The notes under the pieces were generated by a model, which was not told the origin of the DNA, searched no databases, and saw only the letters and a program-made list of their open reading frames with translations. From NCBI GenBank assembly GCA_030668875.1, contig DAOVER010000030.1, positions 1 to 32,000 on the forward strand: 32,000 nucleotides of DNA. Direction: 5' to 3'. The position numbers and the translations under genes were made by a program. This stretch comes from Candidatus Heimdallarchaeota archaeon. GTDB lineage: Archaea > Asgardarchaeota > Heimdallarchaeia > Heimdallarchaeales > Heimdallarchaeaceae. How positions within the stretch are numbered: the stretch's first letter is position 1; each line of letters starts with the position of its first letter. Shown piece by piece: positions 5,938-24,312 of the stretch.

Positions 5938-6025
5938 ACTTGCAATTTGCACACCATTTGCAAAACTTTATATGCGCTTCTAACAATTGTCACATAACTT
6001 GCAATTTGCACGTTCTGTGCAAAAC
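5938..6025. promoter_or_regulatory. Twin 29-bp operator repeats flanking a TATA box in the regulator/MFS divergent promoter
   Basis: ACTTGCAATTTGCACACCATTTGCAAAAC (5938-5966) and ACTTGCAATTTGCACGTTCTGTGCAAAAC (5997-6025); the second holds a perfect TTTGCAC-N5-GTGCAAA palindrome; TTTATAT at 5967-5973 lies between them. Confidence 0.75.
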
Positions 6026-6039
6026 AAATACACGTTACG

Positions 6040-7380
6040 ATGATAAAAATGTCAAAAAACGAGAATAATTTACAATCAAAGAATAGCTATAAGCGGTTGA
6101 TGCCTCTGTGGATAGCCATTTTCATGGATGTTTTAGGATATACTTTATTAATCCCCTTATTTCCCACTATAAAGGTACTTTTTAGCGCTACTAACTTTCA
6201 AGTAGCAGCTTTAATGTCAGTTAATGCATTTTTCACTATAATCTTTGGGTTATTACTTGGAAAATTGTCAGATAAATTTGGTAGAAAACCCATACTTCTA
6301 ATTTCACAAATTGGTACTTTAGTTGGATTTGTCGTCTTTGCATTTTCAAATAGCTTAACCATGCTTTACATTTCGAGAATAATTGATGGCTGTTTTGGGG
6401 GTAATTTCCCCGTATGCAAAGCGATAGTTAGTGACTCTGTTCCCTTTAAAGATAGGAGTAAACAAATGGCTAACATAAGTGTTGTTTTTGCTTTATCAAA
6501 TGTTATAGGTCCCGGAATGTGTGGACTGTTATCAACTATTGGTTCAGGTCTTATAGGTCCTGGAATGTTTGGTGTTGTCCTCTCGGCTATATCAATTATA
6601 ATTACTATCTTTCTGATAAAAGAAACATCACCTATTAAAACTGGAAAGTTATTACTAGGTGAAAAAACCATTGAAACGGAAAAAATAGACTTGCTAGTTT
6701 CAAGTGATAGACGTATTTCTAGAAACAAAACCGCGATGATATTACTCACTCAATTTGGATTTCACGCTCTTGCACTGATGATCATCTATTCAAATATGAC
6801 CCTTTTTGGAAATGAAAAACTTGGCTTAACTACTGTCTATTTAGGAATACTACTTTCAATAGCAGGGTTATTTCAAATAGTCTTCAGGTTCACTGTTTTC
6901 CCTCTGCTTCTAAAACATCTGGGAGAAAAGAAATTTTCAACTCTTGGATTAGGGTTGTTCATCATAGATTATGCTTTAATAGGATTTGTTAATAACGAAT
7001 GGCAACTCGTTTTAGCTATTCTTGGACATTCACTTGCTGCAACTGTATCAAGAGGAATACTAATTAGTTTCATTTCTCGCTCTGTAGACCCTCGTGATCA
7101 AGGTAAGATTCAAGGTTTGAGTTCTGGTTTGGATACTCTAGCACAATTATTTGGCCCTTTAATAGGCGGGTTCATAATCTCAAATTGCAGTCTGTATTGG
7201 TATGGTTTAGTACCTGCTATCATAGCGATAATTCCTTTTGCAATGGGTTTTATTCCTTTAAGATTTAAAGGAGAAGAGACGAGATATGAGAAAGAAACAA
7301 CCAAAATTCCTCAATCAGTAATTCCTAATGCTTCAGGATCTCAAGAAAGTACTGTTTCAGCTGAAGGAAGGAGTAAATGA
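6040..7380 (+). CDS. MFS transporter (TetA/DHA1-like drug:H+ antiporter)
   Basis: About 12 TM segments; motif A GKLSDKFGRKPILL; SRIIDGCFGG; DQGKIQG in the second half. Confidence 0.92.
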   Translation: MIKMSKNENNLQSKNSYKRLMPLWIAIFMDVLGYTLLIPLFPTIKVLFSATNFQVAALMSVNAFFTIIFGLLLGKLSDKFGRKPILLISQIGTLVGFVVFAFSNSLTMLYISRIIDGCFGGNFPVCKAIVSDSVPFKDRSKQMANISVVFALSNVIGPGMCGLLSTIGSGLIGPGMFGVVLSAISIIITIFLIKETSPIKTGKLLLGEKTIETEKIDLLVSSDRRISRNKTAMILLTQFGFHALALMIIYSNMTLFGNEKLGLTTVYLGILLSIAGLFQIVFRFTVFPLLLKHLGEKKFSTLGLGLFIIDYALIGFVNNEWQLVLAILGHSLAATVSRGILISFISRSVDPRDQGKIQGLSSGLDTLAQLFGPLIGGFIISNCSLYWYGLVPAIIAIIPFAMGFIPLRFKGEETRYEKETTKIPQSVIPNASGSQESTVSAEGRSK

Positions 7381-7490
7381 GGTAGGAAGTTAAGCTTACA
7401 CAATAGTCTGTTTAACCTACTTCTCCTCCCATTATTTGTATCCTAAAAATCTAAAAATAGACGAAAGAGAAAAAAATTGATTTTTCTCCT

Positions 7491-9743
7491 TTATTCTTTC
7501 TTTTTCTTATATGTTCTAATTTGTAAATGTCCTACAGCTAGAACTGCAAGAGTTATAACGGTCATTAGGGGTGAAATTGGTATTGTTCCTACATTTAGTT
7601 CAACGATGATACTATCTGTTATGATGCAATTTCCCCAAGTATCAAAAACGTATATTTGGTAGCTAAAGAAACTTATATTCTCTGGAATCTGAAGAGTGAA
7701 TATATACTTATCTAAATCATCATCATAGATGGTTTCGTTTTTCCATCCTTCACCGAAATCATAAGATAAAATCACTTTGTCTATTCCAGATTCATCTGAT
7801 GCTTCTACGGTTATTTCTACCTCCTCTCCACTTTTAGGTTTTTTAGGATCAAGTTTGATATCTATTATTTCTGGTGCAAGTTCTTCATGAAAGATTAAAC
7901 TCTTTGTAGCTGATATGCGACTGTTGCCTTCGTTATCTGTTGCATAAATCTTATACATAAGACACCTTACTGATTCTTCATTAGATATACTTACAGAATA
8001 TATATTTTCTCCTGATTCTGACATTGAAACATTTGTCCACCCTGAAGTTGTATTATATGACAGAATAACTTCTGCTAACCCATGTCCATCAATTATTTCA
8101 CTATAAAAACCTACATTTGCACCAAATCCAGGACTTTCAGGTGTTGTTGTAATAGTGGAGAAGTAGGGTCTACTGTCAATATTTATCGATAATTCATAGC
8201 TATAGTTTAAGCTGTAACCATCTATAATTACGCCTAAATATGCTGAACAATTTTCTGTAGCGACATATTGCACCTCTTTTGGATCATCTGATGTGTCGTC
8301 ATAATCCACTATCCGTCCTAATGCATTGTACATATAGATGTTTAGTTCCCCTAAATCATCTGCAGTGAGCTCTGCAGTAATTTTGTCACCTGCAACAAGG
8401 TTTACTGCAAAATACTCATCTATTGTTGCTGTAACGATTTTTGTTTCATCATCACTTAGGGTGTAAAGCGCATCTGGTAGGGCATCGCGCCAAGCGTAAA
8501 TAAATTCTCCCCAACTACTGTTAATAGCGAAATCTAAACCATAATAAGGATTAGGACTCTGATTTACGTATTGATCACCACTATTAGCATAAAACTTTTG
8601 GTAGTCTTCATTAGGTATCCTTGGGAAATAAATCCACAACCCAAAGGGGTGCACCGGGTAAGAAGAATAACTCATGATATTAATGTCCTCAAGAGCTGTT
8701 TGAGTTTCTGATGCTTGTTGTACGATTTCTATTGAGGTACTATCTTGTAGGTTTACAACAAATTCGTAAAGTTCAGCACCATAGTTGGGATAACCGTCAG
8801 AATTCGCTAACTCACGCGCAAGACCTATTTCTTCTGCATAAGTATCCAGATTATCAATAAGTACTATAGCGAGTTCATCTATCTCTGTTTGAACATAAGT
8901 CATATCAGTTGTATTCCAGATGCCAAAAGCAACTCCTAAACCATATTGATCCACATATGTTGTGCAAATATGTTCTCCCAAAACATCACCAGTCATGTAA
9001 GGATCAGCTAAGAGATAAGGTAAGAAGTTTTCATAGTCCCATCCATCTCCTGGTTCATTTAACAATGAAACACCAACATAATCGGCGCTAGGACTTATTT
9101 CATAGACAATTTCGTATTGACCCATTATACATGCATCCATACCAATGAAATCAAAATGATATCCATCAAGTGCTTCTTGGAGTTCATTAATGCCTATGCA
9201 ATTATCATTGTTGTCCCAATCCCAACATATGCCCTCTAGACCACCACCATGATCCCAAAGACTAAGACCATATCTTTCTGCAGGGTAATTAGTCATAACA
9301 AAATCAACAAAGTTGGTGAGTGTCTCTCCCTTACCCATATTCAATTCTCCCTCTTCGCTAATCAAAGTAGATTCTATCTCTATATCATCAGAACCTGCTT
9401 CAATGTAGTAAATTCTTGCCTCAGTCCACGTTACACCATACTCTGAATCACCACCGCTATCGCTTTCACATAAGTCAACTAAAACTATGATATTAACATC
9501 AGCTGTTGACCCACCTGCTGCTTCCATCTCATTGATGTCATCAAGGGCTGCTGCTTCAAGATTGTTATCCCCATCTAAGTAAACCATAAAGGTCCATTCT
9601 TTCATTACAGGAGCATCATCTAGTCTAGACATTTCTCCTGAGCTAGTATGATCAGCTGAATGAGCACTGATAGAACTTGTAGACGAAGAATGTAGTACTA
9701 ATAAACCTAATAACATGAAATAAACTGCTTGCTTCTTAATCAT
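7491..9743 (-). CDS. Surface-anchored clostripain-family (C11) cysteine peptidase with Ig-like C-terminal domains
   Basis: KEWTFMVYLDGDNNLE, E.NMG....L..F, LWDHGGG (His), DFIGMDACIMG (Cys); signal peptide; C-terminal TM plus RTYKKKKE. Confidence 0.9.
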   Translation of the reverse strand: MIKKQAVYFMLLGLLVLHSSSTSSISAHSADHTSSGEMSRLDDAPVMKEWTFMVYLDGDNNLEAAALDDINEMEAAGGSTADVNIIVLVDLCESDSGGDSEYGVTWTEARIYYIEAGSDDIEIESTLISEEGELNMGKGETLTNFVDFVMTNYPAERYGLSLWDHGGGLEGICWDWDNNDNCIGINELQEALDGYHFDFIGMDACIMGQYEIVYEISPSADYVGVSLLNEPGDGWDYENFLPYLLADPYMTGDVLGEHICTTYVDQYGLGVAFGIWNTTDMTYVQTEIDELAIVLIDNLDTYAEEIGLARELANSDGYPNYGAELYEFVVNLQDSTSIEIVQQASETQTALEDINIMSYSSYPVHPFGLWIYFPRIPNEDYQKFYANSGDQYVNQSPNPYYGLDFAINSSWGEFIYAWRDALPDALYTLSDDETKIVTATIDEYFAVNLVAGDKITAELTADDLGELNIYMYNALGRIVDYDDTSDDPKEVQYVATENCSAYLGVIIDGYSLNYSYELSINIDSRPYFSTITTTPESPGFGANVGFYSEIIDGHGLAEVILSYNTTSGWTNVSMSESGENIYSVSISNEESVRCLMYKIYATDNEGNSRISATKSLIFHEELAPEIIDIKLDPKKPKSGEEVEITVEASDESGIDKVILSYDFGEGWKNETIYDDDLDKYIFTLQIPENISFFSYQIYVFDTWGNCIITDSIIVELNVGTIPISPLMTVITLAVLAVGHLQIRTYKKKKE

Positions 9744-10017
9744 AAAGTGGATATTGTTTTGACCCTTTTATTTTTTTTGGAAGCACTCCAGCTGTTCATT
9801 CTATCATGAATTGAGCTTCAAGTCTCTTTCACCTAAAAATTGTGGTTATTTCATTAAATACTTATTATTGAGTGGCCTAGTTATGATAGTTATTGTGTCA
9901 TTCTATCTATGTGGAAAAAGAAGGGAGGATGAAATGTTTTAACAAAAAATGTGCTTATTTTGCTTCCACTGAATTTTTGCTAATTTTACATTTCACCCTA
10001 GTAACGAAGGTTTTCAG

Positions 10018-10617
10018 TTATACTATGTAGAAAGTTACAGGGAATATTCCTATAGTTAGTAATCCCCAAGTAGGATCGTCTACTCTCCAATGAATCTCAA
10101 GACAGTATGTACCTCTAGCTAGTTCCTCAGGTTTGAATAATACACCTTGCATGTACCACCAAACAGCTCCAAATTCTGAAAAAATAGCTGTTTTAATAGC
10201 AGTTCGTCGAGTTTCTAGTTCAACACCATTAAGTAATATCCCCATTGAAAACCATGAAAGAGCTTCAATCAATCCCCAATTGTTTTGAGGGAGACCAAAA
10301 TAAGGCAACCAAGCCAAATCGCTTTCTTGCATAGCGTCACCCTGATAGATTCCATGAGCATCTTCATATCGGAATGATTCTCCGTCAGACTTCAAAGAAA
10401 TTCTTCCAGCTGCACCGGCTATAGGAGCTGCCAAGGGTTCAAGCCACCATTCATTTTCTCCAGGACTATATTGTATAGCCATTGTTCCTCCTAGAGTTGT
10501 TTGAAAGTTAGCTAAAATGTCACCATAAGTTATGATACCTGTTTTAGCTGTGGCAACAGGGAGTAAAGCAAATATTCCACATAACATTACAACATAAGTT
10601 AGTTTTCGTAGTTTCAT
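10018..10617 (-). CDS. Hypothetical secreted protein
   Basis: SD GGTGGTGA before ATG 10617; signal peptide MKLRKLTYVVMLCGIFALLPVATA; no C-terminal anchor. Confidence 0.75.
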   Translation of the reverse strand: MKLRKLTYVVMLCGIFALLPVATAKTGIITYGDILANFQTTLGGTMAIQYSPGENEWWLEPLAAPIAGAAGRISLKSDGESFRYEDAHGIYQGDAMQESDLAWLPYFGLPQNNWGLIEALSWFSMGILLNGVELETRRTAIKTAIFSEFGAVWWYMQGVLFKPEELARGTYCLEIHWRVDDPTWGLLTIGIFPVTFYIV

Positions 10618-11039
10618 TCTTTTCACCACCAAAGCTCAATTGAACTTTAGTAAAGATAACTTACATCGTTTAACTGAAAAAGGATATGTGAAAAGTACTA
10701 ATGCAACGATTCTGCAACTTTTAATTACAGCCCTATTTTCTCGCTGATTTGTAATTAGAAGAGGTGAAATGCCTGTCTGGGTTTAATAATATGATTCTAC
10801 AGAACATTAATATACTTTCCAATATATTATACTTTTAGAAAATTATGAAAAAAATATCCTAATCATGTATGGACCAAACATGGAGGAAGACACTTATACT
10901 CGCCAAAACGCTACAACGATGATTGCTCCTGTCATCATATTGACAATTGTAAGGATATAACCATGCGATTTCTTTCCTTCTATTATTTTCTTTTTAGAAA
11001 AAACATTTAACCCCATTCCTTTATTTATTATATGATAAT

Positions 11040-12158
11040 ATGAGTAACACTGATATTAAACCCAAACCAAAACTCTCTTTCTTTCTTAAGAATCTTAGAT
11101 TGCTTTGGAAATTAAAACGAGCCAATAGGAAGGTTGGTGAGGATTTTGTTAATGCCAACAAGAAGCTTCTAGAGCCTATCTATCCTGTTTCTGAAGGTAA
11201 TAAAGGACCCATGGAAGAGGGTATGATTTATGTTATGTTTAACTCTGAAGGAAAAGAAGATCCGATCAAGATTAATACTGTTTTCAGGTTTTTCTGGGTT
11301 GATTCTCCTTCTCTTCGTTTATCTGTTCTCGATTCTTATATTGTTTCGGAAAAATTTTCTTCTAGACAGTGGGAAACATTCTACCCCAAAGGAGTTCTAT
11401 TAAATAAATCAAAAAATCGTTATCATCAAGAAGTTGCTGAACCTGAACTTGATTTTCTTATCGATGGCACTTGGGAAGAAGGTTATACCTTTGAGTTCCA
11501 TGATAAAAAACTAGATATGAAAGCTAAATTGACTTATACTCCTCTTACCCCCAAGGGGATCTTAGTCTATTATAATGGTAGAATGGCTATTAGTCCTTCT
11601 ATGGCACAAGAATTCTATGATAGTTTTGCTTTCAAAGTTACAGGAGAATTTATTGTAGAAGGTAAGAAAGTAGAAATCAAAAATGGGCGAGGAATTATTG
11701 AGCATGGGACAGGTATATTTTCTATTCTAAATATATACGACTGGCGATGGCTTAACCTTCAATTTCCAGAAGGATCTATTCATTTATTCTATCATTCACT
11801 AGATATAAAGGACGAAGGAATATTTGAAGCAGGAGAAGGTGCTTTAGTTATGAATGATGAATGGTTCCATTTTCAACCATATGACTTCATGATAGAAGAG
11901 CAAGGCTACTCTGAAGATGAGAATATCCCCTCCAAAGTGCCAACAGAGTGGAAAGTAACTGGAGGAAAAGATGAGACAGGCAAACCTCTCTTAGTCTTGA
12001 AAGTTACAACTAATGCTAAAATAACTTGGATTGGTAAACTTGGTAAAGAAAACCAATTTATCACTAATTATGTTTTAACTGCTGAAGGTACCTGGAAAGG
12101 CAAGAAGATTAAAGGAAAAGGAACTATGGAGAATATAATGCATAGAATAATAGAGTAA
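11040..12158 (+). CDS. Uncharacterised protein, tentatively tocopherol-cyclase/AttH (lipocalin-like beta-barrel) fold
   Basis: 372-aa clean ORF; beta-rich VTGEFIVEGKKVEIKNGRGIIEHGTG and YDWRWLNLQF resemble that superfamily (recognition by eye). Confidence 0.6.
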   Translation: MSNTDIKPKPKLSFFLKNLRLLWKLKRANRKVGEDFVNANKKLLEPIYPVSEGNKGPMEEGMIYVMFNSEGKEDPIKINTVFRFFWVDSPSLRLSVLDSYIVSEKFSSRQWETFYPKGVLLNKSKNRYHQEVAEPELDFLIDGTWEEGYTFEFHDKKLDMKAKLTYTPLTPKGILVYYNGRMAISPSMAQEFYDSFAFKVTGEFIVEGKKVEIKNGRGIIEHGTGIFSILNIYDWRWLNLQFPEGSIHLFYHSLDIKDEGIFEAGEGALVMNDEWFHFQPYDFMIEEQGYSEDENIPSKVPTEWKVTGGKDETGKPLLVLKVTTNAKITWIGKLGKENQFITNYVLTAEGTWKGKKIKGKGTMENIMHRIIE

Positions 12159-12407
12159 ATAATCACTATTTACTCCGCTTCTATTGCGAACTTTCTCCTA
12201 TGTTATTAATGAGACAAGGAGATAGAATGTATTCATTATACCTAAACTAATTTTTCTCTCATTTAATTCTTCTGTACAATTAACTCTTGTCAATCTATTT
12301 AATAATTCAATACTTCCTTTCTTAAAATTGAGGTTTTTTTCTCTTCCTAATCTATGACTACTAAATGTGAGTAATAATCTTACTAGATTGCAATTGAGAA
12401 TTTATTT

Positions 12408-14399
12408 TTAATTGGGAAAATACTGACTATTCTTTCGTCGTATATGGCAAAGAGTAACAAAGGACGCAAATAAAATTACGAAATAACCTTTTAGAATAGT
12501 AAACTCACCTATTATTACTACTGTTGGTTCATTTAAGGGATAAGGATCAATAGAAGAAGAAGAGCCAGTTATTAGATAATCACCCGTTCCACTATAATCC
12601 GACCAGTAATTTCCTTCATTAGTTTCAGGGTCATACCAAGTATTATTGATCCCATCATCATAAGCTTGTACGGGGTTACTATTATTGACGAATGTATTAT
12701 GGTGAATAAGGTTGTTATCTGAACCAGTCAAATAAACACCATAACCATTATCGATAATAAGATTCCAAGAAAGAAGATTGAAGTCAGAAGAAGCAAGACG
12801 GATACCATGGTTAGTATTCGAGCTAAATATATTGTCCGTCAAAGAATTATTATTTGAATCATAAGTATCGATGCCCATCAGATTATTTGAGTTGCAGGTA
12901 TTATTTGTTAAAAAATTAAAATTAGAAGAATAAACAAGATTGACGCCTATATCATTATTTGAACAATCATTATCCATCAAAGAATTACTAGAAGATGAAG
13001 AAATATACATGCCTTGATGATCATTTGAATTGCATAAATTATCCGTCATAGAATTAAAGTCAGAAGAAGTATAAAGACAAATGCCCCAGCCATTATTTGA
13101 ACAATCATTATCCGTCAAAGAATTATTATTAGAATTGTAAAGGTGGACGGCATAAAAATCATTTAAGGTGAATGTATTGTTCATTAAAGAATTACTAGAA
13201 GAAAAACGAAGAGAGGTACCATGACGATAATTTGAGGTACATATATTGTCCGTCAAAGAATTATTATTAGAATAATCATGAAGATAGATGCCATGGTAAG
13301 TATTAAATCTGCAAGTATTTTTCGTTAAAGAATTGTTATTAGAAAAATCATAAAGATAAACTCCATGATAATTACTTGAGCAATTATTGTTCATCAAGGA
13401 ATTGAAGTCTGAAGATTCAATATAGAATCCGTATTCTTCATTTAAGACGCATGTATTATTCGTTAAAGAATTATTATTAGAAAGTTCAATATATATGCCT
13501 TGATAATTATTTGAATTGCAATTATTATTTATCAAAGAATTAAAGTTACAAGAATCATAAAGACGGATGCCCCAGCCATTATCTAAACAATCATTGTCCG
13601 TCAAAGAATTATCATTAGAAGAATCATAAAGATAGATTCCATAAAAAGAATTAAAGGTACACATATTGTCTGTCAAAGAATTATTATTAGAAGAAACAAG
13701 ATAGATCCCATAACCATTGTTTGTACATAGATTCCTTTCCAAAGAATTATTATCTGAAAAATGAAGATAGATACCTTGATGAGGATTATCAGAACAATTA
13801 TTGTCCGTCAAAGAATTGTTATTAGAAGAAGCAAGATAGATCCCATGGTAATCATTTAAGTTGCAGGTATTATTCGTCAAAGAATTGTTATTAGAAGAAG
13901 CAAGATGGATCCCATAGCTATTATTTTGGCAGAAATTATTTTCTATCTTAGCAGTACCAGATGCAACACTATCAATGTAAATTCCATAAATACTAGCTAC
14001 TCCTCCTGTATCAATAGAATTATTGCGGATAAAGAAATGTTTAGTGGTACCACTGATATAGATTCCATGGACACCAGAAGTATTTATTTCCCACCCTTCA
14101 ATAATATATGGGTCTCCAGAAGTACCTGAACCACTTGCTACACCATTTGCAGAAGTGAAGTCAGTATTATTATTTATCTCAATAGGCGCATGAGCAGAAT
14201 AAGAGTAATCTAAAGAAAGCTGATAATCCATTGAACCTAAGGTTAAAGAACCACCCACTTCTGTTGTAGAACAACTTTGTATTGTTGTTTGATTATCTTG
14301 TCCATAAGTCTGTGAAGAGGATAAAATTAACCCTCCTACCAAACATAGTACAAGAAGGTAATATCTGATTGATTTGTGAGATTCTAACATTGAAAACAT
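12408..14399 (-). CDS. NosD-type right-handed parallel beta-helix surface protein
   Basis: H.PI.I..N.DF, GSGT..DPYIIEG N-cap; many GIYL.SS.NNSL..N.C..N repeats; HHNTF.NN, EGNYWSDY, DPYPL; signal peptide and GEF-TM-RRK tail. Confidence 0.9.
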   Translation of the reverse strand: MFSMLESHKSIRYYLLVLCLVGGLILSSSQTYGQDNQTTIQSCSTTEVGGSLTLGSMDYQLSLDYSYSAHAPIEINNNTDFTSANGVASGSGTSGDPYIIEGWEINTSGVHGIYISGTTKHFFIRNNSIDTGGVASIYGIYIDSVASGTAKIENNFCQNNSYGIHLASSNNNSLTNNTCNLNDYHGIYLASSNNNSLTDNNCSDNPHQGIYLHFSDNNSLERNLCTNNGYGIYLVSSNNNSLTDNMCTFNSFYGIYLYDSSNDNSLTDNDCLDNGWGIRLYDSCNFNSLINNNCNSNNYQGIYIELSNNNSLTNNTCVLNEEYGFYIESSDFNSLMNNNCSSNYHGVYLYDFSNNNSLTKNTCRFNTYHGIYLHDYSNNNSLTDNICTSNYRHGTSLRFSSSNSLMNNTFTLNDFYAVHLYNSNNNSLTDNDCSNNGWGICLYTSSDFNSMTDNLCNSNDHQGMYISSSSSNSLMDNDCSNNDIGVNLVYSSNFNFLTNNTCNSNNLMGIDTYDSNNNSLTDNIFSSNTNHGIRLASSDFNLLSWNLIIDNGYGVYLTGSDNNLIHHNTFVNNSNPVQAYDDGINNTWYDPETNEGNYWSDYSGTGDYLITGSSSSIDPYPLNEPTVVIIGEFTILKGYFVILFASFVTLCHIRRKNSQYFPN
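12770..13920 (-). repeat. Intragenic 66-69 nt (22-23 aa) tandem repeats encoding beta-helix coils
   Basis: Core AAAGAATT(A/G)TTATT recurs at about 12841, 13117, 13255, 13327, 13465 and onward, in frame with the NNSLT.N.C repeats. Confidence 0.85.
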
Positions 14400-14484
14400 A
14401 AAATTATTCCAACCTACCTACCTTTAGTAAGTTACTTTTTCCTTTTAAGGATTATGGAAAATGGGCCTTTGAGATAATATATAC

Positions 14485-14551
14485 ATAAAAAAGGAGTTAA
14501 TAAGATTTAACTCTTTATGCTTTTCTGCTATTTTTTCTGCCATTACGTCTA
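14485..14551 (-). repeat. Copy of the fprA 3' end including its T-tract
   Basis: 14502-14551 vs 15856-15905 = 47/50 identical (encodes DVMAEKIAEKHKELNL); similarity extends to ATAAAAAAGG at 14485 vs 15837. Confidence 0.95.
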
Positions 14552-14619
14552 CTTGGAAAGGCAAGAAGATTAAAGGAAAAGGAACTATGGAGAATATAAT
14601 GCATAGAATAATAGAATAA
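14551..14619 (+). repeat. Copy of the last 23 codons of gene 11040..12158
   Basis: 14551-14619 vs 12090-12158 = 67/69 identical; both mismatches synonymous (ACT/ACC, GAA/GAG); ends exactly at TAA. Confidence 0.95.
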
Positions 14620-14667
14620 TTTGCTGAATATCTTGGAATGATCATATTATAGGTTGTGGATGTTTTT

Positions 14668-15537
14668 TTACATCTCTTCAAGAATTGTTTTTTTGATTGT
14701 TTGTGTGAATTCATATACACTTGGTTTGGTATGACAGTAATCATATGATTGTATATCGATAAACTTGCTGTTTAATATTAATTCATGAATCATTTGAATT
14801 TCATCAGATTCATGATATTTATCATCTGGTGTTCTAACAATGAAAACAGGAATCTTCATTTTCTTAAAATCCTCTGTTGCATCCCAATAATGTAAATCTC
14901 TACAAGGTTTCCATCTTTGTAGATCAGCATTTTTGATTCTGTCATAGAAGACTTGTTTTTGAAACCCATCAGCTACTTTATTCCTAAAATATATTCTAGC
15001 AACCAGCTTTCCTAGAGAATTCAACACAAAAGCAGGAAATAAGGAAAAGATATTTATTAATTTACTTGGAGCTCGTGGTTTTCTAGCTGGGCCTGTCAAG
15101 AAACAACCTTTTGATGTAATCATGTTTTGCCCTACTAGGTGTGCAACATAACTTGCACCAATACTAGAGCCAAAAAGAACTAATTTCTTTTCATCAAGCT
15201 TTAGAAATTTAATTGCTTCAGCTAAATCAAGAGCAATTCGATGAACTGAACACTCACTGCTTTTCATCAATTTATTAGACTTCTTCTCTCTTGGATCAAC
15301 AATAACTAGATTGAATTCTTGATGTAAAGCATCCCAAAAGTCATTCCAAGTGAAATATCCTGATGCGAAACCTTGAACAAAGAAAAAGACAATATCAGAT
15401 TTCGTTTTGTCACCTAAGGAATACTGACAAAAAATTTTTTGACCATCAGACATTTGGATATAAACTTTGCTTGATTCTTTAAGGAAAATAGTGTCCTGAG
15501 TTTCTTTTTCTACACATGAATTTCTTTTCATATACAT
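14668..15537 (-). CDS. Alpha/beta-fold hydrolase
   Basis: FFVQGFASG oxyanion loop, VIVDPRE, nucleophile elbow LFGSSIGAS, PVFIVRTPDDK, late His in YCHTKP. Confidence 0.85.
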   Translation of the reverse strand: MYMKRNSCVEKETQDTIFLKESSKVYIQMSDGQKIFCQYSLGDKTKSDIVFFFVQGFASGYFTWNDFWDALHQEFNLVIVDPREKKSNKLMKSSECSVHRIALDLAEAIKFLKLDEKKLVLFGSSIGASYVAHLVGQNMITSKGCFLTGPARKPRAPSKLINIFSLFPAFVLNSLGKLVARIYFRNKVADGFQKQVFYDRIKNADLQRWKPCRDLHYWDATEDFKKMKIPVFIVRTPDDKYHESDEIQMIHELILNSKFIDIQSYDYCHTKPSVYEFTQTIKKTILEEM

Positions 15538-15708
15538 ACTTCCTTTAAGTCTATGTGAGGAAACAATGTAATCTAAAGCTTTTAACTCCTGTAGATAATA
15601 TTACTTAGTGAGTGATTTTCCAATTTAAAACATTTTTTGTCTTTATTTCTTTCTTAGTTACATTTTATATCAGAGGAAAGTGTTTTGTTCTAACAACAAG
15701 GCACACCA

Positions 15709-15834
15709 TTAAAACAATCGAATCGATTTCTATGTTAATCTCTATATTATTTTATCATTTTTGTCTCTCTTCTGTACAATCACATTTTCCAACTCAAGTT
15801 GCTTCAAGAATTTCATTATTCCGAGGGGTCTCAA
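15709..15834 (-). pseudogene. Degraded coding remnant, possibly the end of a winged-helix protein
   Basis: LRPLGIMKFLKQLELENVIVQKRDKNDKII*RLT*KSIRLF*; a diverged homologous copy lies at about 12241-12300 (37/60 ungapped identity with 15741-15800). Confidence 0.35.
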
Positions 15835-15849
15835 TGATAAAAAAGGGAT

Positions 15850-17031
15850 TTAAAGAAGATTTAGCTCTTTATGCTTTTCTGCTATTTTTTCTGCCATTGT
15901 GTCTAATGCTTTGAAAATTTCTTCTTTTGGATGACCTTTGGCATAAACAGGTTCTAAAATCTCAACATCCTTTAATCCAGGTACCATACTGACAACTTGA
16001 TCTATTGTCTTTGTAAACCATCCATACGAACCAATTACTGAAATTAGTTTAATTTTTGGTTTCAAGGCATTTAGTAGATAGGCTGCATATACTGCTAATG
16101 GATGGGGACCGCCATGAACTGTAGGAGTACCAAGAATCACTGTAGCAGCATCGACTAGAGTTATAGCAAGTTTTCCTATATCTACAACAGCTAAATCAAA
16201 CTGATGGACAGTCACACCTTTTTTTGCTAATGCACCAACTAAGTATTCTACCATGATTCTTGTGCTTCCGTGCATGGATACATAAGGAATAACAGCAACA
16301 TTTTTTGGTGTATCTGCAATCCAATCTTCATAAGCATCTATTATAAACGATGGTTTGTCATAAATAGGTCCATGACTGGGAGCTATCAGTTGTATTTCCA
16401 ATTGTTTTACTTTCTCAATGTTTTTTCGAATAATTTTGCTAAAAGGCATCATTATTTCTGCAAAATATCTTTTAGCAGCTTCATAGACTAATCCTTCATC
16501 TTTAACATAGAGATCGGTTGTTGCAACATGTGAACCAAAGAAGTCACAAGAAAAGAGTATTTTATCTTCTATAAGGTAGGAAACCATTGTTTCTGGCCAA
16601 TGAACCCATGGAGTATGGATGAATTTTAATGTTTTATCACCTAAACCAATTTCCTCCCCGTCTTCTACAATCTGTATTTGTTCTAGAGAAATTAACAAAT
16701 GATCTATCAACATCTCTTTTCCTTTTTTAGTTGCGAGAACTTTAGCTGATGGATATTTCTTAAGAACAGCTGGTATTAACCCTGAATGATCTTGTTCTGT
16801 ATGGTGAGATACAATGTAATCAATTTTTTCAACATCTTTCAATTGAAAGAAAAACGTATCTGTCATGCTTGGATCTACAGTGTCGAGCAAAACGGTTTTT
16901 TCACTTCCTTGAATCAAATATGAATTATAACTAGTTCCATCTGGAAGAGGTATAAGCGAATCAAATAACCTTCTATCCCAATCAATTCCACCTAACCAAT
17001 AAACATTTTCGATTATCTTTCGTTTTTTCAT
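15850..17031 (-). CDS. fprA: Flavodiiron (A-type flavo)protein
   Basis: GTSYNSYLI, HHTEQDHSG, PWVHWPE, LFSCDFFG, IAPSHGP diiron ligands in a metallo-beta-lactamase fold; flavodoxin domain YVSMHGST, GTPT, GSYGW; start ATG 17031. Confidence 0.93.
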   Translation of the reverse strand: MKKRKIIENVYWLGGIDWDRRLFDSLIPLPDGTSYNSYLIQGSEKTVLLDTVDPSMTDTFFFQLKDVEKIDYIVSHHTEQDHSGLIPAVLKKYPSAKVLATKKGKEMLIDHLLISLEQIQIVEDGEEIGLGDKTLKFIHTPWVHWPETMVSYLIEDKILFSCDFFGSHVATTDLYVKDEGLVYEAAKRYFAEIMMPFSKIIRKNIEKVKQLEIQLIAPSHGPIYDKPSFIIDAYEDWIADTPKNVAVIPYVSMHGSTRIMVEYLVGALAKKGVTVHQFDLAVVDIGKLAITLVDAATVILGTPTVHGGPHPLAVYAAYLLNALKPKIKLISVIGSYGWFTKTIDQVVSMVPGLKDVEILEPVYAKGHPKEEIFKALDTMAEKIAEKHKELNLL

Positions 17032-17299
17032 GTGAAATAAAAAAAATAGGAGTATATAACTTATTCTTAAGGACAATTATATCTAAAATTGATCTCATAC
17101 TTGGAAGAAAAAGTGATTGTAGAAACATTCTTCTTTATTCCATTATTTGTGGGAAATAGAAAGTTACATAGGTATACCTAATCTTCTAATCCTATTACAC
17201 TTTACAAAACTCTTTCACTTGTGATTATCACTACATCCTTCATATATGTATTCAGCAATAAACTTAAGGTGAATATTGTACTATTTCACTTGAAAAATT

Positions 17300-18400
17300 A
17301 TGCGAAAAATCATGTTTGCAGCTTTAGTTGTGATTCATGGTTTCATTCACCTTTTAGGATTTTTTAAAGCATTCAATTTAGCTGATATTAGTTTGTTAAC
17401 ACAAAGTATTTCAAAACCACTAGGGATTCTTTGGTTGCTTGCAGCAATCATCTTTTTGACAGTAGTTGTTTTGTATTTGTTAAAGAGCGGATGGTGGTGG
17501 ATTCCAGCAGTTTTAGCAATTATTCTCTCTCAAACATTGATCATATCTTCGTGGGTAGATTCTCAATTTGGAACATTGGCTAATATATTAATTCTTCCTG
17601 TTTCAATTGTTGGATTTGCTACTTGGCTTTTCAATTTAAAAGTGAAACAGGAAAAGAAAGAGGTTTTATTGCAATCTTCCCCACAAGACAAAACTTTGAT
17701 CACCGAAGAAAACATATCTAATTTACCAAGTCCTGTGCAAAACTGGCTTAAAAATTCAGGAATTGTGGTAAAAGAAAAGATACGAACAGCCTATCTCAAA
17801 CAAAGTGGACTTATGAGATTAAAACCTAATCAAGAGAAATGGATTAAAGTAGAAGCTGAACAATATATTACAAATAACCCTTCATTTATTTGGAAGGCTA
17901 ACTTGTCTATGATACCATTGATAAATGTCGTTGGTAGAGATCTTTATCTTCATGGTCAAGGAAGTATGAAGATTAAAATTGCTTCAATTATACCCGTCGT
18001 TAATGTTTCGAATAACGACAAACTCAACCAAGCTACACTACAACGTTATTTAGGAGAAATTGTTTGGTTTCCTTCTGCTGCAATTAGTCCATATATTAGC
18101 TGGGAAGAAATAGATGATCTTTCTGCTAAAGCAACAATGACATTTAATGATGTTTCGGGTGATGCAGTATTTCATTTTAATGAAAAAGGCGATTTGGATA
18201 AATTTACCGCACAAAGGTATTATGAAACTGATGAAAGTGCTGAATTGAAAGAATGGATTGCTGAAGTAAAGGAAACGAATATTGTAAATGGTGTTAGAAT
18301 ACCTACAAAATTAGAAATTTCTTGGGTTCTGGATACAGGTGTATTTACTTGGTATAAATTTGAAGTGTTTGATATTGAATACAATCAAGACGATTCCTAA
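17300..18400 (+). CDS. DUF6544-like membrane-anchored protein
   Basis: Four N-terminal TMs starting HGFIHLLGF; LP.PVQ.WL..SG, W...EAEQY, F.W.A, RYLGEIVWFP.A, VRIPT..EISW. Confidence 0.75.
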   Translation: MRKIMFAALVVIHGFIHLLGFFKAFNLADISLLTQSISKPLGILWLLAAIIFLTVVVLYLLKSGWWWIPAVLAIILSQTLIISSWVDSQFGTLANILILPVSIVGFATWLFNLKVKQEKKEVLLQSSPQDKTLITEENISNLPSPVQNWLKNSGIVVKEKIRTAYLKQSGLMRLKPNQEKWIKVEAEQYITNNPSFIWKANLSMIPLINVVGRDLYLHGQGSMKIKIASIIPVVNVSNNDKLNQATLQRYLGEIVWFPSAAISPYISWEEIDDLSAKATMTFNDVSGDAVFHFNEKGDLDKFTAQRYYETDESAELKEWIAEVKETNIVNGVRIPTKLEISWVLDTGVFTWYKFEVFDIEYNQDDS

Positions 18401-18599
18401 TTCTATTATGACAATGCAATATTTCTTTATTTTTTTAGTTAATAAAACTGAGAACTTAATCAAATATTTAATTCTCCTGACTTAACTTCTATAATTGGGT
18501 TTGTAGTGCTAATTATAGTGACTATTGGTGTTATTTTTATGACTAGGTTTGTAAAAAATACAAACATAGAGATGAAAAAGGTTCGATTCTTGGGAATGT

Positions 18600-19064
18600 T
18601 TAATTTAGTTCTTCATTATATTCTGCTCTGGTAGAATCATATTTTTTCGCTTCATCTGGGTCTGTTAGATTATTCCAATACTCCTTATATCTGCTAGGGA
18701 TGTCTTGAATGTTTTCGTGATTGAGTATATAATTAGTGGGCATAGGGTGAGTTCCTATCTCTACCTTAACTCTTATATTCTTCTCAATATGATTTTTGAA
18801 AACATCTATGTTAGGACATGGAGGGTATCCGGCTAACATACCAGTTGCAAAATGTATAACGTTTGCACCATAATTTTTCATTCCTGAAGCAACATATTCA
18901 ATATTGCCTCCTGGGCACCCACCACAAGTTGAGTAACCAATTACTTCCACTTCTTCTTTACCATACCTTTTAAAAGCGCCATCTCGTTCTCTAACAGCCC
19001 TGAAACATTTCCCTCCATTGCAAGTTTTATAACGATCACAAATAATAATGCCTATTCTTTTCAT
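18600..19064 (-). CDS. CGGC-domain metal-binding protein
   Basis: IGIIIC.RY..C.GGKC, GYSTCGGCPG, IHFATG...GYPPCP, GTH. Confidence 0.9.
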   Translation of the reverse strand: MKRIGIIICDRYKTCNGGKCFRAVRERDGAFKRYGKEEVEVIGYSTCGGCPGGNIEYVASGMKNYGANVIHFATGMLAGYPPCPNIDVFKNHIEKNIRVKVEIGTHPMPTNYILNHENIQDIPSRYKEYWNNLTDPDEAKKYDSTRAEYNEELN

Positions 19065-19306
19065 CTTAAATCGTAATGAAAATTAATTAAAATGATTTAA
19101 ACCTTATTCATTGACTCTATTTGTTTGATATAGTAAAAAATGAAAATCATTCCAGCTAAATCTTTTTTTTAGTTCTATAATTAGAAATTGTTTTTTTAAT
19201 TTAAAAACTTATGATTTTTCCTTTTTTACTTTCCCAAATCTCAATGTCCTTCCTTCTGTAATTGCGTTTTAGATTATCTAATTAAAAAAAAGAAAGAGAA
19301 AAAAAA

Positions 19307-21950
19307 TTATTTTTTAGGTTTCTTAATTAGTTTGACAATAGTAAAAACTCCCCAGATTGATGCTACTGCTCCTGCACCAACGAGTGTACCCCAACTTTGG
19401 AAAAATGAAACAAATGATGATGGAATTGTTAAGTCTATAGTAAAATTGTAACAATGGTTGTTTCCTGCATTATCATAAGCTACAACCGTGATGTTGTGTG
19501 GACCACTATCTTGTTGAATACTAGTGTCCCAGTTATATTCGTAGATAGTATCTTCTTGAGGTGTTGTAAGAGTAGCAATCAATTGAAGATTATCAATAAC
19601 CTCAACCTTTTGTATACCACTTCCAATATCAGAAGCATTGATTTTGATGTTTGTTATACCAATCGATGGAGAGGTTGCGAGATCAACTATTACCACGTTT
19701 GGTTCTATGTCATCTATTATTTCGTATGAATAAAATGCTCCTGAATTGTCATCTACTCTTAGATTCCCTTTTGTATCAAGTAATTCAAACCTAAACTGAA
19801 CGTTTGTTCCATAGTCAAAAGCTGGTAGTGTAACCTCATAATTACCCATATACGGAATACAAGGTAATCCGACCCAGTTTGATTCATACAGGTAGAAAAG
19901 GTTAATCTCTTCAATTTCTGATAGTAAATCTTCTGCAAAGATATCCATCTTAACTTTATCGTAGTAGGTGGGGGTATCCAAAATTTCCCACGAGAGTAAT
20001 TCTGGTCCATTTGTGTCTTTTACAAAGTTCATATCATCAAACATTACTGAAACATAACTACCTGTGCCATATGCTGCTGCAACTAATTCTACCCTAGTTA
20101 GATTCCAAAGTTCATCTCCAAAAGCATTAGAAGCATCTTTACTAATATCTCGAACTAAATTATTCCATACTCCAGTTTGGTTAAATTGTTTAACCAAATA
20201 GCATTGGGTGCTACTTGTATTTGTAAAAGATGCTACTTGCCCAGCTCCAAGAATGTAGTGGATATTATAACCTCCTTCAAATGTTAATTTTATAGTGGAA
20301 AAGGAATTCGTTACTGCATCAATAGAGTTCAATTTCCACCAAAAATCTGTATAGAGATTGTCTCTGACGTAGAACATCAGATTTCTATATAGTGAAACTT
20401 CGCCATAATTTTCAAAGGATGTGAGATTAGCTCCCCAAATTCTGCTATGGCTGTCATCTGTTGAAGATATGTGTGTTTCAGTAGAGCTAGTACTCCAGCT
20501 TGTAATAGGAACAGAAGGAGTTCTATACCATTCTTCTTCAAAAGAAGGATCAGCTAAAGGATAAGTGTTGATTTGTAAATCATCGATTAATAAATTAACT
20601 GTGGAATTTGCATAGTATCCAGAATTAGTAATCAAACTAAGACTAGTAATAACTTGATTACTTAAATTAAAGGCTTCGTAAAGCTCAAACATATCAATGT
20701 GAAAATGATTCCAAGCCCCTTTTACGCTAGATAAAGAGGTGTTCAAGTAATAATACTCGTAAGTTGGTTGGGAGTAATTTGACCAAGGAATTTCATCTTG
20801 ACCACTTCCTAAAAACCAGTAAAAATAGCTTTGATAACTTTCATTTTGCCCTTGTAAATAGAAATATGCATATTGTTCAGTACCACCGTTTAAAACATCT
20901 GTATATTTCCAATCAAAGTCTATCTCCACCATTCCAGGTGATGAAGGATAGTATCCCCTCCTAAACGTTTCATAGGATGACATAGAGTAAGAAATAGAAC
21001 TTGATGAACTTGAACTTGCGTAGTAAGAATTTGCTGTCAAATTCAAAGATTTATCTCCTTCTATTGAATCATCACTTAATCCAATGTACCCTCTTCCTTC
21101 TTTGTTACCTGCCCAACTTGATCCTGTCCCTGTTTCAAAATCTCCATTATCAGCTAAATAGTTGAAGGAAGAATCATTTTGCATACTAACGTCGTCTATA
21201 ACTAGTTCAGTGAAACCAGTACCATGATACGGTGAAGTTGAGTAGAAATATATGTAATATACATATACTGTAGAAGAAACACTTCCAAAAGCTTGTTCAA
21301 AATCATTTGTAACATTTCTTTGTGCTAAATGTTGCCAACTAGCTGCAGGTCTAATCATATTGAAATATGCTCGATAAGTGTCATTCGTCATCGAAAAGGA
21401 AGATGCTGATAAATAATAGTTTATAGTATACCATTGAAAAATAGCTGGATCAAATATTCTTAGTCTCGCATAAGAACTACCTCCAATAGTTATATCTGGA
21501 TTAGCAACTGTATTCCACCAAAAATCTAAAGATATATTCTCAGCTAAATTCGGTAAAAAAGGTTGACTATAATATCCCCAAATTATGTAATTAGTTGCAC
21601 CACTAATTTTTGTTCCCTCACACGAAGAGTACCCTGAATATAAACCATTATGTGTTAGTGATTGATAGTTAAGTTCACTGTAAGAGTTGCTGCTAATAGA
21701 ATGGTCCATACGTTCAGGTAGGCCTTCAGGAGTTGACTCTTCAAAGTTCCCATTAGGAATAATATTCGTCCATAATTGTTCTTCTCCTCCAGCTCCTACT
21801 GCTGCAAAAATTTGATTTATTTTACTCTGCTGGGGAGAATTGTTTGTTGTGGATATTTGTTTACCTAATACTAGATCTGAAGTAACTGTTGAAATAAAAA
21901 AAAATCGTAAGTAGGAAAACTGCTAAAATAGTTTTACTTTTCTTTTTCAT
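19307..21950 (-). pseudogene. About 880-aa surface protein with three CBM4/9-like domains, Ig-like domain(s) and TM anchor; +1 frameshift in signal-peptide T9 tract
   Basis: ATG 21950 (GGCGAT SD) MKKKSKTILAVFLLTIFF; a T8 instead of T9 at 21896-21904 restores ISTVTSDLVLG...NIIPNGNFEE..RMDHS, in frame with ORF 19307..21709; repeats start NGNFE/NGDFE/DPSFE; tail TM plus KLIKKPKK. Confidence 0.85.
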
Positions 21951-22140
21951 TATATCGCCTTTTATTGTATTTAATTGGATAATTACCTTTTTAAGATAAT
22001 CATCTAAAATATATAAAGTTTCTTTGTAACTGTTTTAAATCATGAAAATTAGTTTTTAAGAAAAAAAAGGAGGAAAAATATTATATTATATTATTTTTCA
22101 TTTCGATTCACTTATGACATGAATTGTGTACAAATTCTTT

Positions 22141-22280
22141 AGAAGTGCCTGAGCACATCATGGAGACGCCACATCCCCTCCTACACCGCCCACATCTTCT
22201 TTCAAAGGTGCTTACGGTTCGCTTTTGGATGTTCGTTGGATGTAGCCCCGAGGATCATCATGTAATTGATGCATAGCTAC
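22141..22280. ncRNA. Candidate structured RNA (unidentified), strand probably minus
   Basis: 22141-22260 is 63/120 GC against about 30% background; on the minus strand GCUACAUCC/GGAUGUGGC form a 9-bp stem with a G.U pair; TATA-like TTATAAAT at about 22290-22297. Confidence 0.35.
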
Positions 22281-22577
22281 AATCCTTAAATTTATAATCT
22301 ACACTACCCTACTTAAACTCCAAAAAAATGTACAAAAAGTATGTTGTAAACAGATGAAATGAGCCTTAAATTTGAAGTTTTTGGTTTTCAAAAGTTTATA
22401 ATTGTATTAACTGTTAATCTCAATAGATTAAAAACACAAGATAAATAAAGCATAAAGAGAAAAAAAAGCAGGAAGTCTCTGTGCAAATTGTGTTTTAAGA
22501 GACAAAGGAATTTCGTCTCGAAATTTCACAATCTCCAAGAGATTAGGGGAGGATTAATCCTCTCCCACTCCTTCTAA

Positions 22578-22628
22578 TTATGGTGGCCAAAATTCTGGCT
22601 CGTCAGGGTCTCCACCGGGACTAAACAT
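22578..22628 (-). CDS. Micro-ORF MFSPGGDPDEPEFWPP (16 aa)
   Basis: Perfect SD AAGGAGGTG (22646-22638) 9 nt before ATG; Pro/Gly/Asp codons explain the local GC spike; followed by hairpins and a T-tract. Confidence 0.5.
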   Translation of the reverse strand: MFSPGGDPDEPEFWPP

Positions 22629-22750
22629 CTTTCCATGCACCTCCTTATGTCACTATTGTTTGGAAGACAACAAGGAGGGATCTTCTATGTCAAAAAGGAC
22701 GAAACTTGGCTTTTTACCCCTCTTCAGTCTGTAAGATGCTGTTTTAGCTG

Positions 22751-22768
22751 TCGGGTATTTTTACCCGA
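22751..22768. promoter_or_regulatory. Palindromic operator candidate upstream of the tandem-Lrp gene promoter
   Basis: TCGGGTA-TTTT-TACCCGA (7-4-7 perfect); TATA TTAAATA at 22794-22800, about 30 nt before ATG 22825; partial repeat TTTTTACCC at 22701. Confidence 0.55.
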
Positions 22769-22824
22769 TACTCCATCATATGAAGGAAAATCGTTAAATA
22801 AAACAAAAAACTCTATAGATTGCC

Positions 22825-24312
22825 ATGTCTGGCATTACAAATCAGAATCTTGTAATTAGATTGGAGGAAGCGGAAAAAATCTTGGAGGATGATTATACTC
22901 AATTCCATAGTATTATAGTTGACAATTATATCCAGTATGAATCTCCATTGTGGGACATAGCTTGCTTTCTGACCTTCTATGAACTTTCACCTAAATCAGT
23001 AAAAAGGCAGAAATGGGTGGAATACTGGTTCAAATTCAGTAAAACAAGAAGATACAAGAATCTAGTTTACATGGTTCCAGCCAGCTATGTTGCATTATCT
23101 GATTTGCGTAAAGCCAAAGACTTTTTCGTCGATCTTTTAGAACAAAGCAGAAAATCAGTGAAAGAGTTAGCTTGGGAAACTTTCCTATCTATTTTCTATC
23201 AATTCAGAGCATCTGTCAAACCCTCATTCAATAAAAGAGAATTTACAGTGTTTAAGACAATTCTAGATAGACAAACAATGGTTTCAAGCGAACTTAAAGA
23301 TTACTTAGATATTGATCTCTCCAATATTTCAAAATATAAAACTATCGTAGAATACAAGAGAGTCTTACATCAAGGTATATCATTAAATTATCACAAACTT
23401 GATCTTTCAGTATATGGTTTGATGTTCGAATACCCTCTGACTAAGGATATTGACCTTTACTCTGAATTGTCAAATAGTGTGTTTTTTCATTCTTTGTATA
23501 CTGGAAATGTTGGATGCAGATCCGCTCTCTCATATTTTGTTGCTCCTAGACATAAAAAGGTGGAAGAAGACTTCAATAAATTATCAAAGAGAATAAGTAA
23601 AAATAATCATATCCCTTACTCTCGTATTTTACGGTTTCTAACAGAAACCAGATTAAAATCATTTAATTGTGGTATTTACGATTTTAAGAATGGACATTGG
23701 ACACTCAATCCTCAAAATCTTCAGTTTACGCTTCAAGATTATGATTCAAGATTAATAGAAACAGTACCCATCCTAACACGTGATTTTGAGAACTGTGATT
23801 ATGAAAAACTAAAATTGAATAAAACGGGTCTTGATATCTTAAATCACATACTAGCAAATATGCATCTGTCGATAAGGGATATAGTCAGTGATCTTGGATT
23901 AACAGAAAAGGAAGTAAAGAAACAAGTTGATAATCTTCGAAAAAACGAGTTGTACAAATTAAGATACAACCCCTTATTCGTGTTTGGCTTAAAACATATT
24001 ATCATATTTCTTCATGATTCTCATAAAAATCAGCATGAGATCCATAAGACTCTATCCTTTTTCCCAGAAGTATATAGTGAACAATATGTATCTAAAGGAA
24101 AAAATGGTCTTTACATTGTTCTTAGGATCCCTTATGAGCTTGTAGTTGATGCAATTGAGTCTCTTACTAACTTTTTCAAAGGAAAAATAGAGAATCTTTT
24201 CATTGTTGACCAAATGATTACAACAAGATATCAGTTGCCTGTAGATAGATATGAAACAGTTTTTCAGGAGTGGAAATACTCTTCTGAAGATATTTTGGGA
24301 GTTGATTTTTGA
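22825..24312 (+). CDS. Tandem Lrp/AsnC-like winged-helix regulator with an extra N-terminal helical domain
   Basis: HTH1 NKREFTVFKTILDRQTMVSSELKDYLDIDLSNISKY with linker LNYHKLDL; HTH2 LNKTGLDILNHILANMHLSIRDIVSDLGLTEKEVKKQVDNLRKN with linker NPLFVFGL; each followed by an alpha/beta domain. Confidence 0.75.
   Translation: MSGITNQNLVIRLEEAEKILEDDYTQFHSIIVDNYIQYESPLWDIACFLTFYELSPKSVKRQKWVEYWFKFSKTRRYKNLVYMVPASYVALSDLRKAKDFFVDLLEQSRKSVKELAWETFLSIFYQFRASVKPSFNKREFTVFKTILDRQTMVSSELKDYLDIDLSNISKYKTIVEYKRVLHQGISLNYHKLDLSVYGLMFEYPLTKDIDLYSELSNSVFFHSLYTGNVGCRSALSYFVAPRHKKVEEDFNKLSKRISKNNHIPYSRILRFLTETRLKSFNCGIYDFKNGHWTLNPQNLQFTLQDYDSRLIETVPILTRDFENCDYEKLKLNKTGLDILNHILANMHLSIRDIVSDLGLTEKEVKKQVDNLRKNELYKLRYNPLFVFGLKHIIIFLHDSHKNQHEIHKTLSFFPEVYSEQYVSKGKNGLYIVLRIPYELVVDAIESLTNFFKGKIENLFIVDQMITTRYQLPVDRYETVFQEWKYSSEDILGVDF

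Follow-up and report, generated by a model that had tools for sequence, protein, structure and literature searches.

Two alternative gene contents likely joined in series between the same pair of flanking genes in a Heimdallarchaeota genome

We describe a locus of an uncultured Asgard archaeon in which two different cargo genes lie one behind the other between a pair of convergent genes. The window, by which we mean the whole stretch of 32,000 nucleotides (nt) that was analyzed, comes from contig C10 of G000, a Candidatus Heimdallarchaeota metagenome-assembled genome (MAG) from marine sediment (99 contigs, 3.2 Mb, 92% complete, 4.4% contamination, 33.8% G+C). From left to right, the locus consists of the end of a gene that begins at position 11040 (gene 11040 from here on), a NosD-type gene, a stub of the 3' end of fprA (f'), a stub of the 3' end of gene 11040 (a'), an alpha/beta hydrolase gene, and fprA. 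Our analysis indicates that this is likely a real chromosomal scar, at which two alternative contents of the 11040-fprA interval were joined in series.

The evidence starts with the two stubs. A repeat search matched 12089-12158 (copy a, forward strand), the last 23 codons and the stop of gene 11040, to the stub a' at 14550-14619 (forward strand, likewise 23 codons plus stop), with 68/70 positions identical. The same search matched 14499-14551 to 15853-15905 at the end of fprA, with an identical core of 49/53. BLAST on the genome itself widened this second pair to 14485-14551 for the stub f' (reverse strand; 17 codons, the stop, and ∼14 nt beyond) and 15837-15905 for the resident fprA end (copy f, reverse strand), at 88% identity, and found no additional copy of either repeat piece in the 3.2-Mb assembly. 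The exact repeats within these pairs are only 62 nt (12093-12154) and 33 nt (14512-14544) long. The limits of the stubs fall where the homology of each gene to the other haplotype ends, at the stop of gene 11040 and ∼14 nt past the stop of fprA.

The two stubs abut. The fprA-derived part finishes in ...GTCTA, the 11040-derived part opens with TAC..., and the dinucleotide TA at 14550-14551 is common to both parents. On inspection of the sequence, this TA is an illegitimate joint with a 2-nt microhomology; it sits immediately before the second copy of the 11040 end, and a and a' bracket the NosD segment as 70-nt direct repeats. An earlier, sequence-only reading of this DNA had proposed that two stubs abut through this TA and that each of two cargos is bracketed by the same convergent gene ends. 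The stub anatomy confirms both proposals, and the identities given there (67/69 and 47/50) differ only trivially from ours. Codon inspection also upheld the three synonymous mismatches that it had counted, two in the 11040 copy and CTA/TTA in the fprA copy. The two differences between a and a' are both synonymous changes at third positions (ACC/ACT and GAG/GAA), and the cores of f and f' differ by the synonymous CTA/TTA, by a two-base codon change (ACA versus GTA), and by a 1-nt indel beside the stop.

Both flanking genes are intact. Gene 11040 (11040-12158, forward strand) encodes 372 amino acids (aa) without a Pfam or NCBIfam family; a lead from an Atlas feature search is that its product may be a lipocalin-like AttH/CrtC protein. 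On the other side, fprA (15850-17076, reverse strand) encodes a flavodiiron protein with metallo-beta-lactamase-like and flavodoxin domains. The first cargo (12408-14399, reverse strand) encodes a NosD/parallel beta-helix protein of 663 aa with an N-terminal signal or transmembrane segment, ∼20 PbH1 repeats of 23 aa, and a C-terminal transmembrane anchor, and is predicted most likely to be a surface protein. The second cargo (14668-15537, reverse strand) encodes the alpha/beta hydrolase of 289 aa and is adjoined on the right by a degV-like relic (15544-15688, reverse strand) that retains the 3' end of the gene; in relatives, this gene is intact next to the hydrolase gene. A Pfam scan of all open reading frames (ORFs) of at least 110 aa in the window found no integrase, transposase, or other recombinase domain in the window or the insert, in agreement with the earlier proposal that no recombinase is needed. 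Base composition and G+C content at third codon positions (GC3) are alike for the NosD gene, the hydrolase gene, and the flanks, and neither measure gives a compositional sign of foreign origin for either cargo.

Can a version of this interval with a single cargo be found in relatives? We compared 30 genomes of the family, one per species with G000 counted, 23 of which represent other species of the same genus. One of them, G010, carries on its contig C129 the order gene 11040, hydrolase, fprA, and a CGGC-domain gene, without stubs. Another, G021, carries the end of gene 11040 followed by the hydrolase gene on its contig C61. The stub a' together with the next 48 nt (14620-14667) is colinear with the 11040-hydrolase junction of both genomes. 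The sequence-only reading had suggested a search for relatives in which the two flanking genes enclose one cargo only; this succeeded for the hydrolase, in G010 and at the 11040-hydrolase side in G021, and no interval with the NosD gene only was found.

The stubs also match the alleles of these relatives better than they match the resident genes, which was a second check suggested at the outset. The stub f' is identical to the fprA end of G010 at 63/66 positions, compared with ∼88% identity to the resident fprA end, and a' carries the state of G010 and G021 at both of the sites at which it differs from resident a. The closeness of f' to G010 and of a' to G010 and G021 supports the earlier view that the stubs are allelic rather than freshly duplicated DNA. 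In addition, the two pairs of copies differ from each other in character: a and a' show 2/70 differences and have 3-5 states in common that are found in no other species, whereas f and f' show 8/67 differences and have no derived state in common.

The slot behind gene 11040 varies in other ways among the relatives, and the region of the locus is heavily rearranged between species. In G021, contigs C61 and C328 (loci L006 and L029) are exactly alike over their first 55 nt, after which their 11040 ends are 7% different (first 183 nt). Downstream of the 11040 stop, C61 carries the hydrolase gene and C328 carries orf157 and orf434, which are unrelated genes. The shared start indicates that the assembly graph forks here, and the slot is thus polymorphic within the G021 population or MAG. 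In five other genomes (G009, G012, G007, G011, and G017), the hydrolase gene lies elsewhere, upstream of gene 11040 and beside the intact degV-like gene. A neighbor of 287 aa in relatives was considered as a second hydrolase and rejected on the basis of its Pfam assignment to DegV. The degV relic at 15544-15688 shows that the hydrolase block, too, had been relocated at an earlier stage, into the interval between gene 11040 and fprA in the clade of G000, G010, and G021.

We also compared the window with Logan contigs built at k = 31 from four sequencing runs of one study (X1 to X4). A co-occurring relative is represented in runs X1, X3, and X4 by contigs on which the hydrolase gene has other downstream DNA (break at 14666), and in runs X1 and X3, other contigs carry fprA with different downstream DNA (break at 15857). 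These contigs indicate that the hydrolase gene and fprA occupy other contexts in the same sediment community. No collapsed joint, with a skip of 2461 or 1354 nt, is among the matches listed, although contigs at k = 31 would not reveal one.

Searches beyond the family for the locus or its parts gave the following results. Exact-protein look-ups of NosD, the hydrolase, the 11040 product, and a 99-aa ORF over the joint returned no other contig, and a degenerate pattern of the f'|a' joint had no match in the genomes of GTDB species, a scan in which our own genome was not included. Among metagenome contigs, we found 15 loci of the 11040 family (43-72% aa identity), none of which is adjoined by fprA, the hydrolase gene, or a NosD gene. 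Two NosD relatives on Joint Genome Institute (JGI) contigs, P0001 and P0002, were considered as the allele with NosD only and were rejected on the basis of contig flanks unrelated to gene 11040 and fprA. The nearest NosD relatives (L032, 2202-3614, and L033, 1042-2262) measure 470 and 406 aa, compared with 663 aa here, and the count of 23-aa beta-helix repeats appears to vary among NosD orthologs. Within G000, contig C64 has ORFs of 663 and 408 aa, which equal the lengths of NosD and the fprA product; it was rejected as a second copy of the locus, with no similarity by tblastn, and the lengths agree by coincidence.

How could the two contents have come to stand in series? Any route needs one illegitimate join, of f' to a' at the TA, and one homologous exchange. 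One parent haplotype would have been 11040-hydrolase-fprA, which G010 still keeps, and for the other we infer 11040-NosD-fprA. A linear piece of the NosD haplotype would have begun 70 nt ahead of the 11040 stop and extended 53 nt into the 3' end of fprA. Its two ends would have been joined at the TA, giving the f'|a' joint and a circle, and this circular intermediate would have integrated through a single homologous crossover within the 70-nt end of gene 11040. Such a crossover would have duplicated the 11040 end on either side of the insert and left both flanking genes intact. Alternatively, a homologous exchange further upstream in gene 11040 could have been combined with an illegitimate join at the TA, either as a duplicative form of homology-facilitated illegitimate recombination (HFIR) or as an unequal exchange between haplotypes, with an equivalent product. 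The roles could also be reversed, in that a hydrolase-fprA block as the incoming DNA would give an equivalent product.

We favor, if tentatively, the re-circularized fragment and single crossover; duplicative HFIR or unequal exchange is only slightly less likely. The circle is preferred over textbook HFIR because a piece of the flanking gene was duplicated and resident DNA was not deleted. It would also explain the near identity of a and a', which would have taken part in the crossover and its heteroduplex, and the divergence of f', which would have been a passive passenger. The sequence-only reading had put forward HFIR or a circularized slot as routes. Its central idea of an integrase-free capture is supported by our results, the circle fits somewhat better, and the deletion that accompanies HFIR is not seen.

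The divergence of the locus from its relatives is a mosaic. Relative to G010, the synonymous divergence (dS) is 0.06 for the hydrolase gene, 0.28 for fprA, 0.42 for the first 300 nt of gene 11040, and 1.39 for the rest of that gene. The hydrolase gene is 94.8% identical to that of G010 and 94.4% identical to that of G021 at the nucleotide level (dS, 0.06-0.10; omega, 0.5-0.85), compared with a background identity of G000 of ∼81-87% to G010 and ∼79-90% to G021. Compared with G010, it differs by 45 nt and 32 aa (nonsynonymous divergence dN, 0.052; dS, 0.061; omega, 0.85). The low dS suggests that the hydrolase gene passed between species very recently, and on these ratios the gene appears to be under relaxed or diversifying selection. 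The 3' two-thirds of gene 11040 in G000 is more divergent from each of G010 and G009 than G010 is from G009, and the change in dS from 0.42 to 1.39 within the gene would be compatible with a crossover near 11300-11350. Taken together, the mosaic suggests that the locus has exchanged DNA with related lineages several times. On the order in which the cargos arrived, the divergence pattern points both ways: the divergent 3' part of gene 11040 would suit an arrival of the NosD gene along with it, and the very recent hydrolase gene would suit the hydrolase as the last to come.

Several points weigh against a capture of NosD-haplotype DNA as outlined above. Neither the NosD-only haplotype nor the NosD unit itself turned up in searches of the 29 further family genomes, of 5.8 billion proteins, and of JGI contigs. 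The closest NosD relatives, P0001 and P0002, reach only ∼57-60% aa and ∼75% nt identity and lie in unrelated contexts. The contrast between 2/70 and 8/67 differences is borderline (Fisher p = 0.05 for the full stubs and 0.4 for the cores) and could come from gene conversion instead. The hydrolase gene as the newcomer fits at least as well as the NosD gene, as its block is the one most recently common with G010 and G021. The joint measures 2 nt (TA), shorter than the 3-10 bp usual for HFIR, and the 45 nt over it (14541-14585), along with a 69-nt unitig that would cross it, are absent among the Logan contig matches listed. To our knowledge, no study has addressed DNA uptake, end joining, or short-homology recombination in Asgard archaea.

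One alternative to the recombination of two haplotypes is a site-specific integrative cassette whose attachment site is the 3' end of the 11040-family gene, with a replacement for that gene end carried on the cassette and an integrase encoded elsewhere. The 70-nt direct repeats do bracket the NosD segment in the manner of attL and attR, and in another archaeon, 3' relics of this gene family are likewise stacked. At that locus (L040, positions 5992-10965 of JGI contig Ga0209986_10001292, and present again as L051 in a second sample), a gene of the 11040 family is followed by a DUF6577/AbiEi-like gene, orf204, a 425-nt relic, a TBP gene, and a relic of ∼175 nt. The three 11040-family copies there are ∼90% alike, and each of them runs to the stop codon. 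Against a cassette, no integrase, transposase, or other recombinase domain occurs in the insert, in the window, or in the cargo of L040, and the insert terminates with part of fprA, which lies across the slot from gene 11040; such an end is expected of DNA cut from the allelic locus and not of an element with ends of its own. Relic lengths of 70, 175, and 425 nt imply that there is no fixed crossover core, and the NosD unit and the joint were found nowhere else among the 29 family genomes, the GTDB species representatives, and the 5.8 billion proteins. We therefore regard a site-specific element as unlikely, and the cassette in the form just described has a low probability.

Could the locus instead be a product of the assembly or of a mixture of strains? 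In this case, two strains with one cargo each would have been threaded together, or a free circle (11040 end, NosD, fprA stub) would exist beside a chromosome that carries the hydrolase gene only. The contig comes from a MAG in 99 pieces with 4.4% contamination, the samples also contain related populations (on Logan contigs at 90-95% identity, the hydrolase gene and fprA are in other contexts), and the missing piece over the joint noted above also leaves room for this explanation. However, the assembly has 27 pairs of contig ends with an overlap of exactly 141 nt, which indicates that a de Bruijn graph with k = 141 was used. As this k exceeds the exact repeats of 62 and 33 nt, single k-mers tie gene 11040 and copy a to the NosD segment and tie f' and a' to the hydrolase segment, and the contig is unforked. 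An overlap of 2 nt cannot make a de Bruijn assembler invent a joint.

The Logan contigs of the four runs point in the same direction. They are identical to the window over 12125-13835, 13877-14540, 14586-14886, and 14857-15894 and break where a graph at k = 31 must break if both repeat copies exist. Depth is approximately equal for the left flank, the NosD segment, the hydrolase segment, and the right flank in 4/4 runs (X1, 36.8/35.1/36.2/30.7/32.3/33.3). Two alternative strains would each fall under the depth of the flanks, contrary to the roughly equal depth in the four separately sequenced samples, and a 2.46-kb circle without a replication gene at a ratio of 1:1 in four samples is implausible. 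The locus is thus probably not an assembly artefact, and a mixture or a free circle is improbable.

Lastly, former tandem loci (11040-NosD-fprA' and 11040'-hydrolase-fprA) that arose by segmental duplication with cargo turnover and later lost the inner gene bodies by a deletion at the TA would have the identical final structure in a region that is heavily rearranged between species, but this course is very unlikely: it needs more steps (duplication, cargo replacement, and a precise deletion), no relative has two full copies of gene 11040 or fprA, both genes are single copy in G000, and f and f', with their 8/67 differences and no derived states in common, are unlike recent duplicates.

Stubs of 3' gene ends similar to those of the locus recur elsewhere in G000. 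We compared the genome with itself for pairs of short direct repeats ≤20 kb apart that combine a gene end with a copy outside ORFs. This comparison revealed 14 relic pairs of 3' ends versus 3 of 5' ends (∼11 versus 2 after removal of doubtful cases); some 5' ends may have been misjudged among four pairs that were classed as internal. For most pairs, the order is gene, cargo, relic. They are found on contigs C47 (12208-20369), C75 (33985-38521), C66 (2776-6557), C92, C57, C15, and C95, and their cargos include a HepT/MNT toxin-antitoxin pair (C66), a NosD-like gene with a PQQ propeller gene (C75), a histidine kinase gene (C92), and a formate/nitrite transporter gene. On C47, a DegV gene has two successive relics behind it. 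No recombinase was found in these relic-bounded cargos of G000.

One possibility is that, across the genomes of Heimdall-group Asgard archaea, accessory genes are often gained by integrase-free capture of alternative alleles, with 3' stubs left behind. This proposal is based on the ∼11 relic-bounded insertions, on stacks of the 11040 family in two lineages, and on a more than 20-fold spread in dS between adjacent genes; we put it forward as a rather doubtful generalization. If it were true, these archaea, as the closest prokaryotic relatives of eukaryotes, would have to take up DNA of related species actively and recombine it on homologies as short as 70 nt.

Other features of the window lie apart from the locus. 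A segment at 660-788 is a 129-nt copy (84% identity) of the 3' end of a GNAT acetyltransferase gene (copied segment, 5025-5153; gene, 4526-5158); it lies 4.2 kb upstream of the original and outside ORFs and is thus a further relic of a 3' end only. Between the two copies are three genes, at 853-1866, 1950-3035, and 3076-4053, the last of which is luciferase-like. A DUF6544/DUF6920 gene (17300-18400), located between fprA and the CGGC-domain gene, is missing from the corresponding interval of G010 and marks a further presence/absence slot. A repeat of ∼230 nt at 22112-22348, which overlaps a "52%-GC island," has at least 5 more copies at 80-90% identity in G000 (C92, C39, C47, C95, and C3) and more than 10 copies in G010. 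It has no Rfam match and may be a miniature inverted-repeat transposable element (MITE) or an unknown RNA gene. Rfam gave no match within 11000-23000.

What does the scar tell us? It records, base for base, the gain of a gene for a surface protein or a hydrolase in a variable slot, with both flanking genes kept and no mobile element. Together with the steep mosaic of dS, it constitutes indirect evidence of recombination with the DNA of related species in uncultured Asgard archaea. Recombination between the stubs can collapse the stacked state to either single-cargo form, which makes the locus a possible source of strain-level variation in surface proteins. It is a tidy but ordinary scar of integrase-free gene gain by recombination. 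In principle, the mechanism is familiar from bacteria, and the locus is of value as a documented archaeal example rather than as a new principle.

Among known systems, one comparison is with HFIR in naturally transformable bacteria (de Vries and Wackernagel 2002, Prudhomme et al. 2002, and Meier and Wackernagel 2003, as cited in PMC5361080 and PMC3240628). Like HFIR, the locus shows foreign or allelic DNA inserted without a site-specific recombinase, with one homologous side and a microhomology joint on the other, and a homologous anchor is present, as gene 11040 is homologous in all haplotypes. In canonical HFIR, insertion is coupled to a deletion of resident DNA and the joints measure 3-10 bp (PMC3240628). 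Here, in contrast, nothing is missing relative to G010 and 70 nt of gene 11040 are duplicated. The host also differs, as it is an Asgard archaeon without a known competence system.

A second comparison is with the displacement of Rhs C-terminal ends and with the effector-immunity arrays of the Vibrio cholerae type VI secretion system (T6SS), in which a new module displaces the old 3' end downstream and strings of orphaned ends result (PMC5361080). Displaced 3' ends behind one intact gene are found both there and here, with one relic in the window and two in L040, and the L040 stack in particular resembles, by analogy, the sequential displacement at Rhs/T6SS loci. The likeness ends at function: the cargos follow no toxin-immunity logic (NosD and the hydrolase here; the DUF6577/AbiEi-like gene, orf204, and a TBP paralog in L040), and the displaced pieces here are short noncoding stubs rather than reusable toxin tips.

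The third comparison is with conjugation in Escherichia coli, in which most events with homology on one side only were duplications of 109-950 bp, produced by a single crossover of a degraded and re-circularized molecule (PMC3240628). There, the molecule was an experimental plasmid; in our case, the circle is inferred and the homology is much shorter. The fragment here would come from an allelic chromosomal locus, unlike the plasmid, and would therefore carry stubs of both flanking genes. The architecture of the two products is otherwise alike, with a direct duplication on both sides of the insert (109-950 bp there and 70 nt here) and the re-joined ends of the fragment inside it.

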